Source: a virus. Taken from it: 64,000 nt of DNA. The position numbers and the translations under genes were made by a program. Of this stretch, positions 3,746 through 34,042 are shown piece after piece. Where the stretch lies: positions 25,708 to 89,707 of the IMG/VR virus record IMGVR_UViG_3300027759_000067, one strand, 5' to 3'. Below the pieces are notes generated by a model that was not told the origin of the DNA, searched no databases, and was given only the letters and a program-made list of their open reading frames with translations. Position 1 is the first letter of the stretch, and each line of letters begins with the position of its first letter.

Positions 3746-3801
3746 GTCAGTTGGCTTTAAGAAAGCGGCATAATTAAAACATTTATTAAGGAAAAATCAT
3801 T

Positions 3802-4797
3802 ATGGCAACTTTAGCAGAAATTCGCGCAAAACTTCAAGCATCATCTCAACAAGGCGGCAGCAATGCAGGCGGCGGAGATAACGGTGTATTCCCCCATTGG
3901 AATATGCCAGAAGGATCAACTACCACAGTTCGATTCTTACCCGACCAAGACCCAAACAACACTTTTTTCTGGATCGAACGTGCAATGATCAAATTGCCTT
4001 TCGCTGGTATTAAAGGTGAAACAAATTCCAAACCCGTTACTGTACAAGTTCCTTGTATGGAAATGTGGGGCGAGACTTGTCCAGTATTGACAGAAGTCCG
4101 TCCATGGTTCAAAGATAAATCTTTGGAAGATATGGGTCGTAAGTACTGGAAAAAGAAATCTTATCTATTCCAAGGATTTGTCACTGACAGCAAACTTGTA
4201 GAAGAAGGTAAGACACCTGAGAATCCAATCCGTCGTTTCATCATCGGCTCACAAATCTTCAATATCGTTAAAAACGCATTAATGGATGCTGAGATCGAAG
4301 AACTACCTACAGACTATGTTCGCGGTCTTGACTTCAAGATTGCTAAAACTAGCAAAGGTGGTTATGCTGACTATTCTACTTCTACTTGGGCTCGTCGTGA
4401 ACGTGCTCTTGCTGAAATGGAACAAGCAGCAATTAAACAACACGGTTTGTTTGATTTGAAGAGCTTCCTACCTAAGAAACCAGGCGAAGTTGAACTCAAA
4501 GTTATCGCAGAAATGTTTGCAGCATCAGTTGATGGTGAAGCATACGATGGCGAGCGTTGGGGTCAATACTTCAAGCCAGCAGGCTTTGGTGGTAGTGGTT
4601 CAGCAACTGGTTCTACATCAGCACCAAAAGCAGCGCCAGCACCAGCAGCAGGTATTGAGGAAGACGACGTCCCTTTTGAACGTGCGGCAGCAACACCCGC
4701 TAAAGTGGTTGCAGAAGAAGCACCAGCTACAAGCAATGCAGGCAGCAGAGCAGCAGACATTCTTGCAGTAATCCGTAGTCGCCAACAAGCAAACTAA
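3802..4797 (+). CDS. Single-stranded DNA-binding protein, T4 gp32-like
   Basis: VRFLPD, C..CPV, YWKK, GLDFKIAKTSKGGYADY motifs; acidic/Ala-rich tail. Confidence 0.9.
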   Translation: MATLAEIRAKLQASSQQGGSNAGGGDNGVFPHWNMPEGSTTTVRFLPDQDPNNTFFWIERAMIKLPFAGIKGETNSKPVTVQVPCMEMWGETCPVLTEVRPWFKDKSLEDMGRKYWKKKSYLFQGFVTDSKLVEEGKTPENPIRRFIIGSQIFNIVKNALMDAEIEELPTDYVRGLDFKIAKTSKGGYADYSTSTWARRERALAEMEQAAIKQHGLFDLKSFLPKKPGEVELKVIAEMFAASVDGEAYDGERWGQYFKPAGFGGSGSATGSTSAPKAAPAPAAGIEEDDVPFERAAATPAKVVAEEAPATSNAGSRAADILAVIRSRQQAN

Positions 4798-6112: not shown

Positions 6113-6568
6113 GTGAATTGGTACAGCAAAGTAAGCAAGGATATTGCTCACTTGCCAGGCTGTATTGATTACTATTACCTTGAATTAGACACAGCAAGGG
6201 CAGAGGTTAAAATTCACGGAAACGTGGAAAAATCCTCTGCTGCTTTGCCTGGTCTTGTTGCTCATCGATTTAATCAACTTCAAGAAATTGAAGGTATTTT
6301 AGAATATCTAAACATCGAACTACGCCGCTTACGTTCCAAAACTTTTAAGAAATATTTGGAAAACTATCAACGTGCTCTTAGCAGTAGAGATGTTGAAAAG
6401 TATGTAGAAGGTGAGGCAGATGTGGTTGATATGGAAAAGATCATCAATGAGTTTGCACTACTACGCAATCAATGGCTGGGCATTATCAAGGGCTTGGATA
6501 TCAAACAGTGGCAACTAAGTAATATTATTAAACTCCGAACAGCGGGTATGGAAGACGTTGTTATTTGA
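6113..6568 (+). CDS. uvsY: Recombination mediator UvsY-like
   Basis: Helical 151 aa protein with KYVEGEADV and KGLDIKQWQLSNIIKLR; position next to uvsX. Confidence 0.8.
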   Translation: MNWYSKVSKDIAHLPGCIDYYYLELDTARAEVKIHGNVEKSSAALPGLVAHRFNQLQEIEGILEYLNIELRRLRSKTFKKYLENYQRALSSRDVEKYVEGEADVVDMEKIINEFALLRNQWLGIIKGLDIKQWQLSNIIKLRTAGMEDVVI

Positions 6569-25556: not shown

Positions 25557-25587
25557 GTATGTATTATAGCCGAGAACTTGGGTCTCG

Positions 25588-25893
25588 TCAACCTATTTCT
25601 AAGACTTTATTCATATCGATGTTGAAGCCGGCAGCATGGACGTAGACTGCTCGTAGTGAAGATTGGGCAAATCGTTGCTCTACCCGTTGTATAGCCTGGT
25701 TCAATGAAGGGGCGCGAACCCGGTATGTATCCTGATTGCCGTCGGCCCACTCTACAGTGACTAGGTGCCAGGTGTTGTTCTCTGCGACTGCATACAGACC
25801 GTTGACCAATAGGACCAACACTCCGGTGATGAGTGTCTCACTATGGGCCAGGCTGGACCCTAGCATCAGGGCTAGGATTACGGCCTTCTTCAT
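25588..25893 (-). CDS. Hypothetical protein with signal-peptide-like N-terminus
   Basis: MKKAVILALMLGSSLAHS; stop lies within the next -35 box. Confidence 0.65.
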   Translation of the reverse strand: MKKAVILALMLGSSLAHSETLITGVLVLLVNGLYAVAENNTWHLVTVEWADGNQDTYRVRAPSLNQAIQRVEQRFAQSSLRAVYVHAAGFNIDMNKVLEIG

Positions 25894-26866: not shown

Positions 26867-27100
26867 TTACAGATTCTCACCAGAGATTGTATCAATGGCA
26901 CCAGTGTAGACCGCAACGACGCCGTTGCCTTCCTCAAGCCAGCCATTTATGTTCCAGACGTCACGATGTCGATTGTAGGATTCCACCCACATGAGTGCAT
27001 CCTCACGGGTGTCGAACTCTTCCTCTCCGAGCACCTTGTGATCATTCACATGACCAGCATAGATAGGGTAGATTTGAACATTGTGTACGATTGCCATCAT
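26867..27100 (-). CDS. Early hypothetical protein
   Basis: GGAG RBS directly after the structured leader. Confidence 0.7.
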   Translation of the reverse strand: MMAIVHNVQIYPIYAGHVNDHKVLGEEEFDTREDALMWVESYNRHRDVWNINGWLEEGNGVVAVYTGAIDTISGENL

Positions 27101-27106
27101 GTGCTC

Positions 27107-27318
27107 CAGTTAGGAAAAAGTTAGAGGAACTTTGCTGATCAATTCTGAGCTAGCTACTCTCAGATCAATCGCCGTCATTACTGCCTGCCTATTTCGTCTG
27201 CTTCTCCTTGCGGATTGCCATCTTGTAAGTGGAGGAGTAGCCTGCTAAGGCGGGGCTCAAACCCATAATCCCATCACTCACCTAACGATGCAGGTAACCT
27301 CTAACTCTTTCCTAACTG
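27107..27318 (-). ncRNA. Candidate ~210-nt structured RNA closed by a 21-bp terminal stem
   Basis: Inverted repeat 27107-27127/27298-27318 (the one mismatch is G-U on the minus strand); several internal helices; starts right after the promoter at 27330. Confidence 0.65.
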
Positions 27319-27362
27319 TCTATGCTTGTATTATAACGCACATAGACAGCCTTGTCAACCTT

Positions 27363-27605
27363 TTATTCGTCTCCGCCCCAATCTTTTTTCTCTCCAAACT
27401 CTTCATTGTACTCATAGCCTGCGGTGTAGGCTGTGATCTCCGCTGCTGTCATATCCTTCAAACCAATGCGTGGTGTTGAGTAGGTATCGCCCACATAGTA
27501 GTGTGGATCATATCTACGATTGTAATGGCTGTCGGCACTGCCGCGATCCCAAGGGCCACCGTGACGTTGATCGTAGTATGCTGAACGTGTTGCTTCTGCC
27601 ATCAT
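27363..27605 (-). CDS. Early hypothetical protein
   Basis: Own promoter and RBS; RHGGPWDRGSADS. Confidence 0.75.
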   Translation of the reverse strand: MMAEATRSAYYDQRHGGPWDRGSADSHYNRRYDPHYYVGDTYSTPRIGLKDMTAAEITAYTAGYEYNEEFGEKKDWGGDE

Positions 27606-28436: not shown

Positions 28437-28493
28437 TCTTAGTTAAACAGAGTACTCATTTCCTTCGTCGCTCGGCACTCTGTTTAACTAAGA
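28437..28493 (-). other. 17-bp perfect inverted repeat with 23-nt loop just upstream of an RBS
   Basis: TCTTAGTTAAACAGAGT / ACTCTGTTTAACTAAGA. Confidence 0.7.
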
Positions 28494-31036: not shown

Positions 31037-31093
31037 GATAGCTCCTTAGTGTGTAAGCGTGTATTATAACAGGGAGTTGCCTCCCTGTCAACC

Positions 31094-33301: not shown

Positions 33302-34042
33302 GTGTGTATTATAGCGTGGTTTTACCATTCTGTCAACCCCATAATGCCTTAAGGGTTATTTGTTGTCTTTTCACCACATTGCCGGCACTCCACGCCAGGT
33401 TAACATAACGCCAAAAGAAAACCTGATACCCTACTCGGATACCAGGTCTCTTAGTCAGCATACTTAGCAAGTCTCTAGCACACTGCCCGTTCAGCTTGTT
33501 CCAGTATACACTTGTTATACGAGCCTTTACCACCGGAAGTCGTGGTCACTGATTCGACTCAAATAGCGTACAATCTATGACTGTACTCAATATAACCATA
33601 TAAACTGCTTGGCTTCCGGTCCGTTGAGTTTATATCTTATATCTATCTCCAAGTCTACGGTTTCGATATACATTAGACATTGTGGAATTCACTGTCTACA
33701 ACAGTTAAGTCTAGTGTATAGTATAACATACTTATAAGGTTTGGACAACACAGTGTAGATCTCGTGTAGTCTATACACAACATTGACAATATATAGTGTA
33801 TAAACTGATGCTAGAATGGAGACCAAACAGGCTCAGAATCGTGGATTTACGGTGGAGAAATGGTCAAAAATCCCAGAAATCCCACCGTTTTGGCTCAATT
33901 TTCACAGTAAATCTACAGTAGATCTATAGTGATTTTAGATTTCTGCATGGTGGGGATGAGAGGCTATCGTACAATACTCCCACCATAGACCAAAGAAAAT
34001 CACAGTATAGATCGTTTATTCTTTGGTCTTCCCAGGCCGTTG

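Follow-up and report, generated by a model that had tools for sequence, protein, structure and literature searches.

Phage T4 encodes two stable RNAs, rnaC and rnaD (species 1 and 2), which are made and processed with the phage tRNA genes and whose function is unknown. The stalks around 16S and 23S rRNA are cut by RNase III, and RNAs that act in cis from the head of a transcript are represented by the rrn leaders and the put RNAs of phage HK022. Adenovirus VA RNA I, which is abundant and similar in size to the RNA described here, is built of an extended terminal stem, a junction in the centre and a stem at the apex, and binds a host protein. Giant phages carry many translation-related genes, and few non-coding RNAs have been described from them.

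The locus described here lies in a 64-kb window (the whole stretch of 64,000 nucleotides that was analysed) of an 89.7-kb IMG/VR record, which is estimated to be 25% complete and encodes UvsW-like and DnaB-like helicases and a DNA ligase. The record holds one copy of the RNA, and this copy is a member of an uncatalogued family that occurs once per genome in giant (about 350 kb), uncultured freshwater phages. A first-pass annotation of the window had proposed a novel structured RNA that is transcribed from an early promoter of its own. This proposal was borne out, and the RNA has no counterpart in Rfam.

Promoter, fold and parts of the RNA gene

The features of the locus, in the order of transcription, are as follows.

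27330..27358, minus strand: early sigma-70-type promoter, 12/12 consensus, with the likely transcription start near 27323
27107..27318, minus strand: RNA gene, 212 nt including both arms of the closing stem
27298..27318, minus strand: P1 stalk, 5' arm CAGUUAGGAAAGAGUUAGAGG, from the inverted-repeat scan and family covariation
27295..27297, minus strand: junction J1/2, UUA, invariant columns in the alignment of 28 members and in the covariance-model alignment
27285..27294, minus strand: P2 5' strand (CCUGC, A, UCGU), covarying with its partner strand
27281..27284, minus strand: UAGG junction element after P2, invariant in 28/28 aligned sequences
27225..27281, minus strand: P3 domain, from the fold and the covariance-model alignment, with a base helix GUGAGUG/CACUUAC homologous to the family P3
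27198..27214, minus strand: P4, the hairpin UCC-GCAA-GGA with its GNRA loop, and 3' of it the conserved GAAGCAG, from aligned relatives
27184..27197, minus strand: P2 3' strand (ACGA, AAUAG, GCAGG), covarying with its partner strand
27174..27182, minus strand: AGUAAUGAC, junction J2/5 and the start of P5, invariant in the alignment of 28 members
27128..27173, minus strand: P5 domain, made up of a GAC/GUU helix at the base and the long, bulged hairpin GAUUGAUCUGAG-AGUAGCUAG-CUCAGAAUUGAUC, from the fold and the covariance-model alignment
27107..27127, minus strand: P1 stalk, 3' arm CCUCUAACUUUUUCCUAACUG, whose last G is the first G of GGAG
26867..27107, minus strand: GGAG (27107-27104), ATG (27100) and 77-aa ORF, which end the promoter/RNA/ORF block

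The promoter of the RNA gene, which the first-pass annotation had placed at 27330-27358, consists of TTGACA (27358-27353), a 17-nt spacer and TATAAT (27335-27330) on the minus strand, and agrees with the sigma-70 consensus at all 12 of 12 positions. Position 27323, previously given as the start of the element, was retained as the likely transcription start, and the first base of the stem was placed at 27318. From a consensus sigma-70 promoter of this kind, the RNA would be transcribed early by the host RNA polymerase.

About 20 consensus promoters of the same form (TTGACA-17-TATAAT) were found on the minus strand between 23065 and 33336, within 10 kb. Most are followed by short leaders that are near-identical to each other; behind the other early promoters most leaders measure 8-35 nt and one measures 48 nt, and the promoter of the RNA is the only one in the array with a very long leader, of about 220 nt. 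The RNA element is flanked by CATAGACAG and CTGGAGCAC, which look like a standard short leader split in two.

Several other features of the array were recorded. Many of its promoters carry a small palindrome within the spacer, for example CAGGGAG-GCAA-CTCCCTG at 31091 and 23479. Around the -10 box of the RNA promoter, a 9-bp inverted repeat (CTGTCTATG / CATAGACAG) at 27316-27349 shares the first three bases of the stalk; it could form only in read-through transcripts from upstream, or alternatively could be an operator. Two minus-strand promoters (33308-33336 and 25563-25591) have an ATG 6-8 nt past the -10 box without a Shine-Dalgarno sequence, and their transcripts look leaderless; a leaderless-type arrangement was likewise seen in three related loci (L009, L011 and L012), ahead of a small GIY-YIG-like ORF. 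A further inverted repeat (28437-28493), with perfect 17-bp arms separated by 23 nt, was seen in the gap between two small early ORFs. It directly follows, on the 3' side, the terminator-like hairpin GGGGC-TATAT-GCCCC at 28508-28494 (minus strand), and may be another processing or termination structure.

The closing stem pairs 27318-27298 with 27127-27107 over 21 bp with one G-U pair, as first reported, and no other inverted repeat in the 64 kb ranks above it. The minimum-free-energy fold of the 212-nt RNA has an energy of -80.4 kcal/mol compared with an average of -60.0 for shuffled sequences (z = -4.9), and none of 200 shuffles folded as well. Every inner helix listed in the first-pass annotation was found in this fold. 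That list lacked the conserved P2 helix (CCUGC/GCAGG and UCGU/ACGA), which, by comparison with relatives, replaces the CGUU/GAUG pairing of the single-sequence fold. The predicted architecture, which is directly supported by folding and alignment, is a three-way junction that is closed by the 21-bp P1, with P2 bearing a branched P3/P4 domain and P5 forming a long hairpin.

The apex of P3 (GGGA/UCCU with the hairpins GGGU-UUGA-GCCC and GCCU-UAGC-AGGC) is specific to the subtype represented by the window copy and was placed in an insert by the covariance-model alignment. At the position of P4, relatives have GGC-GCAA-GCC or GGAGC-GCGA-GCUCU, followed by GAGAAGCG. In the window copy, UAGC in the loop of P3b could pair with GCUA in the loop of P5 (AGUAGCUAG), and the latter loop also includes the palindrome UAGCUA; this complementarity suggests a possible loop-loop contact or dimerisation. 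A kissing contact between the apical loops of P3 and P5 as a family feature (ACG/CGU or CCG/CGG in typical members, UAGC/GCUA in the window) was rejected, as the association was weak, with 26 members that fit and 13 that do not. A blind scan for further covarying column pairs gave noisy output.

The 3' end of the RNA meets the following gene directly: G27107 is both the final base of the stem and the first G of the GGAG ahead of the ATG at 27100, so that the earlier observation of a stem ending exactly at the ribosome-binding site proved accurate. The 77-aa ORF had no Pfam match, and in the window subtype it is co-transcribed with the RNA. The promoter-RNA-ORF block is 99-100% identical in two related contigs (L004 and L006), where the upstream gene is clearly more diverged; because the whole block is this similar, the 100% identity of the RNA across contigs is uninformative on selection.

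Relatives, covariation and genomic settings

Rfam 15 gave no match across the window at gathering scores, and around the element only chance-level matches at E up to 10, so that, as far as Rfam 15 is concerned, the novelty originally claimed stands. The RNA of typical relatives was likewise unmatched in 12 related loci, with chance-level matches only at E up to 10, and ARAGORN found no tRNA or tmRNA. Among 50,697 GenBank phage records, neither megablast and blastn of the locus nor blastn of two typical members returned a match. In a large screen of IMG/VR (PMC10690425), 8,495 unnamed candidate RNAs were reported, none longer than 151 nt. The family is listed in no RNA catalogue and has neither an Rfam entry nor a match in the 50,697 GenBank phage records.

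Two further likenesses were dismissed. A loose resemblance to SRP domain IV, raised in the first-pass annotation, was not upheld, since the SRP models gave no match at E values as high as 10; ahead of the UCC-GCAA-GGA hairpin the 5' side reads CAA and not AGG. What we take to be short likenesses to the 23S L11-binding region and to the sarcin-ricin loop were set aside, as no rRNA model matched.

Identical copies of the RNA were present in three viral and five metagenome contigs. Searches of the element with nhmmer and blastn against 93 loci around relatives of two flanking ORFs recovered only near-identical copies. Diverged elements were obtained by scanning for a stalk arm, in L102/L104 and in L103; these share the stalk, followed by UUACCU..A....UAGG and later by AGUAAUGAC. 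From the invariant pieces, a core pattern for a family search was defined as UUA-CCUnnAnnnnUAGG ... AGUAAUGAC. It matched 75 viral contigs and, in metagenomes, at least 118 contigs with at least 95 distinct cores, and the family comprises at least 140 distinct core sequences. A looser pattern, TTACCT..AGTAATGAC, gave mostly chance matches, and only about 10 of its 119 matches were genuine. The core pattern matched one contig only in a set of 185,579 species genomes of prokaryotes. This sole match is a 9.6-kb contig (DAOUUM010000075.1, L288) from an archaeal metagenome bin assigned to Heimdallarchaeota; most likely, it derives from a phage and was misbinned. The family is known only from uncultured freshwater phages, and each of five near-complete phage genomes (342-383 kb, 95-100% complete) carries exactly one copy of the RNA. 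Such a single copy per genome marks a core gene and not a repeat.

For the analysis of covariation, 28 distinct members including the window sequence were aligned, and a covariance model (R1) of 222 positions and 68 pairs was built from this alignment and its RNAalifold consensus. In the alignment of 48 distinct sequences to R1, which is therefore fitted to the model, 93.6% of cells are standard pairs compared with 38-43% when partners are slid by 1-3 columns, both sides change in 47 of the 68 pairs, and the covariation score is 0.44 compared with 0.05-0.08 in the slid controls. The observed values were reached by none of 500 shuffles. However, double changes were already present in 25 of 42 pairs of the MAFFT alignment. 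The collection of homologues that the first-pass annotation had proposed as a check thus revealed strong covariation. The window copy, which was itself among the 28 sequences used to build the model, scored 112.8 bits in the sense direction over positions 1-222 and 21.3 bits in antisense. G-U or U-G cells numbered 362 and A-C or C-A cells 42; this excess, together with the sense-strand score, identifies the minus strand as the transcribed one.

Individual helices follow the same pattern. In P2, CCUGC/GCAGG of the window corresponds to CCUAG/CUAGG and CCUAC/GUAGG in relatives, and UCGU/ACGA to CCAC/GUGG and CCGC/GCGG. In P1, 16 of 23 pairs show double changes across the family; the inner six pairs are near-constant and the outer pairs covary freely between sequence classes. 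Where relatives have a common 5' arm, the changes in the 3' arm all preserve G-U or U-G pairs. Stalks without interruption measure 19-26 bp in relatives; that of the window (21 bp) ends in GAGG/CCUC, in keeping with the ..AGG/CCU.. inner stalk and the P1 length of about 20-26 bp that characterise the family. The invariant junction strands UUA, UAGG and AGUAAUGAC are all present in the window (27297-27281 and 27197-27174). Judged from these substitution patterns, the element is a real gene for a tightly folded non-coding RNA whose structure is under selection.

The window copy retains the stalk, UUA, P2, UAGG, the base of P3, the GNRA hairpin with GAAGCAG, AGUAAUGAC and the GAC/GUU base of P5. 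Its P3 apex consists of two small hairpins, where other members have one long hairpin, and its P5 is a plain bulged hairpin without the GAGACG loop and the AGAGAUAGA internal loop of the family. Absent from the outer domains are thus the apical hairpin of P3, whose loop reads GACG or GCCG, as well as CAUGAA, GAGACG and AGAGAUAGA. No intermediates between the window subtype and typical members were recovered among the at least 118 metagenome contigs. As aligned here, the window copy is a divergent subtype of the family. Two outer domains found in most members are lost in it, so that its mode of action could differ or it could be in part degenerate. It also tells dispensable from indispensable parts, since the two outer domains are swapped and the stalk and junctions are retained.

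Two classes of relatives were distinguished. Class A members have window-like stalks (CAGUUAGRAAAG...) and lie 5-10 nt after a consensus promoter or behind a conserved element of about 105 nt; downstream there is a new promoter, a lone tRNA-Asp or, in the window, the ORF. Class B members have AU-rich stalks and lie within tRNA arrays, 35-43 nt past the boxA-like motif GTTCTTTAAAA, which was found at this distance before the stalk in 19 of 48 distinct members. No boxA-like motif was found near the window RNA (27318-27400), and the window as a whole gave four weak matches compared with 12 expected; the whole 89.7-kb record contains no tRNA gene. In about 19 of the 48 distinct members the next gene is tRNA-Asp(GTC). 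Many members sit in tRNA arrays, 4-5 nt ahead of tRNA-Asp, and at L283, L221 and L135/L230 tRNA-Asp follows with no other tRNA nearby. Four relatives (L103, L111, L227 and L259) have promoters on both sides of the RNA. Overall, the downstream partner may be tRNA-Asp, Ser, Leu or Glu, another promoter, or the 77-aa ORF. The presence of promoters on both sides, or of tRNA-Asp as the next gene, indicates an independent gene and not a leader.

In one relative (L225), tRNA-Trp is followed by two promoters, and these in turn by a hairpin resembling boxB, a motif resembling boxA, the stalk with the RNA and, after 4 nt, tRNA-Asp. The promoters of this region (126-619) are 98 bp apart, the boxA-like motif reads CGTTCTTTAAAAAG, and the layout is that of a bacterial rRNA operon; the boxB-like hairpin and the 5' stalk arm of the window RNA have AGTTAGGAAA in common. 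The tRNA array of the same related giant phage also contains a circularly permuted tmRNA (6264-6540; Rfam RF04321, 96 bits). In L102, the conserved non-coding element of about 105 nt (3785-3888), which ends in ...GAGUUUGGAGACUCGGCCUAA, precedes the RNA in place of a promoter; the same element precedes the RNA in eight other loci (L104, L227, L232, L239, L130, L140, L231 and L249), and is probably a second uncatalogued RNA.

Contigs of two lake metatranscriptomes span the RNA, one of 280 nt covering 27058-27337 and one of 335 nt covering 27065-27321. One extends into the -10 box; these are assembled contigs, in which DNA carry-over or read-through is possible, and they give weak support to the presence of the element in RNA libraries, not to its ends, strand or level. 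The 335-nt contig runs upstream into the 105-nt element and not into a promoter, and the letters of this element precede the window-type RNA in two runs, so that the window subtype also occurs in that setting.

Function and rival explanations

The reading that we hold with moderate confidence is that the window encodes a stable, trans-acting non-coding RNA that is cut out at its stalk and is a divergent member of this giant-phage family. According to this proposal, the long, uninterrupted outer stalk would be cut by host RNase III, as are the stalks of 16S and 23S rRNA, and the core so released, about 170-190 nt long, would retain the conserved inner stalk. In the phage of the window, the same cut would also part the RNA from the mRNA of the 77-aa ORF, leaving the latter with a short leader. 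The freed core would then act in trans through a host or phage protein bound at the invariant junction.

Cleavage at the stalk was deduced from the rRNA-operon-like layout of relatives combined with what is known of RNase III, and protein binding in trans from the junction strands, which are invariant and rich in purines. The free covariation of the outer stalk next to near-constant inner pairs also favours the stalk as a processing site. That RNase III would release the RNA there is plausible by the rRNA analogy, and the 21-bp stalk has the unbroken pairing over some 20 bp or more that an RNase III substrate should have. The five near-complete genomes have no RNase III gene of their own, and the host enzyme must therefore be assumed. 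By analogy with 6S or Y RNAs, the long stalk could instead remain uncut and merely protect the ends; with regard to Y RNAs, no Ro/Rsr (TROVE) domain was detected in the five near-complete genomes, whereas controls scored.

The main rival to a trans-acting RNA is a role in cis at the head of the transcript, in which the RNA would be an operon leader acting on its own polymerase or transcript, by processive antitermination or co-transcriptional processing, and not a free RNA. We consider this unlikely. It would account for the RNA being always transcribed first, either 5-10 nt past a promoter or 35-43 nt past a boxA-like motif at the head of tRNA genes, and for its single copy per genome; the constancy of the 5' arm, while the 3' arm drifts via wobble, fits a role for a 5' arm that is still single-stranded. 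However, nearly every downstream gene of the window has its own strong promoter, which leaves no long operon to protect, several relatives have a new promoter directly after the RNA, and known cis antiterminator RNAs are far smaller than the RNA of this family. A leader acting on the 77-aa ORF alone, as a riboswitch or translational regulator, is quite unlikely, and the riboregulator that had been suggested at first is, as far as the downstream ORF is concerned, disfavoured with it. The RNA does occupy the gap between the promoter and the ribosome-binding site, the last pair of the stalk contains the first G of GGAG, and in the window subtype the ORF is always next; yet a closing helix of 21 bp is too stable for switching, relatives of the ORF at 57-78% identity lack such an RNA leader, and other members of the family precede tRNA genes or another promoter. 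The varying downstream partner excludes a leader for one particular gene.

Two explanations start from the terminal inverted repeat. A miniature mobile element inserted into a standard early leader would explain why the flanks resemble the halves of that leader and why the RNA occurs in differing contexts. It is nevertheless very improbable and was excluded, because the RNA is single-copy in each near-complete genome tested, its ends show no direct repeat that would mark a target duplication (the flanks GACAG and CTGGA differ), and its compensatory and wobble changes reflect selection on an RNA made from one strand only. A retron-like msr/msd RNA primed on the repeat has next to no probability: the layout of the repeat, which had evoked retron a1/a2 sequences, is its sole support, and RVT_1 was detected neither in the five near-complete genomes that bear the RNA nor anywhere in the 89.7-kb record, while control genomes scored. 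The lack of a reverse transcriptase already noted for the window thus extends to the entire record.

Returning to the trans-acting RNA, a more specific and decidedly speculative version, which we regard as improbable as a whole, is that of a phage-encoded miniature rRNA-type operon. It would be made up of a promoter, a boxA (in relatives), an RNase III stalk, the RNA and a tRNA, with the core of about 180 nt in the place of 16S rRNA. The constant 5' stalk arm and the invariant junction would recruit a host factor, for example a processing factor of the Nus or RNase III type, or else a protein of the ribosome or of translation. In early infection the RNA, as a decoy or an assembly factor, would then divert the processing of host stable RNAs or host translation, perhaps in connection with tRNA-Asp. 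A T-box-like reading, in which the invariant GAC would act as an Asp codon opposite tRNA-Asp, was rejected, as the window copy is without the UGG to which the 3' end of the tRNA would bind; the three GAC/GUU pairs never vary among members, so that the alignment speaks neither for nor against them. The conserved three-way junction, the rRNA-like processing layout and the frequent pairing with tRNA-Asp provide handles for experiments.

Comparison with known RNAs

Retron msr/msd RNAs share the complementary 5' and 3' ends of the RNA, and differ in that the conserved multi-helix core of the family is unlike an msd hairpin and in the reverse transcriptase, which was not found here. The likeness to adenovirus VA RNA I is an analogy of form only, as the latter is a polymerase III product of a eukaryotic virus and has no sequence or structural homology to the family. 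Closer in kind are GOLLD (RF01998) and ROOL (RF03087), which are likewise complex, covarying phage or prophage RNAs that were found by comparative genomics, often lie near tRNA genes and have no known function; they are 2-4 times larger, and neither was matched at E up to 10.

Bacterial rRNA operons, with their P1/P2 promoters, boxB, boxA, stalk, 16S and spacer tRNA, are resembled by relatives of the type of L225, in which a boxA-like motif of the TGTTCTTTAAAA type is followed by a stalk of 21-26 bp around the RNA and then by a tRNA. The RNA enclosed by the stalk is, however, only about 180 nt long in the family and has no rRNA match, and of these features the copy in the window shares the stalk, with no boxA-like motif close to it. 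T4 rnaC and rnaD are likened to the family by position and not by sequence, as many members of the family sit inside tRNA arrays; they are shorter (about 120-140 nt), and the window copy differs from them in lying near no tRNA.
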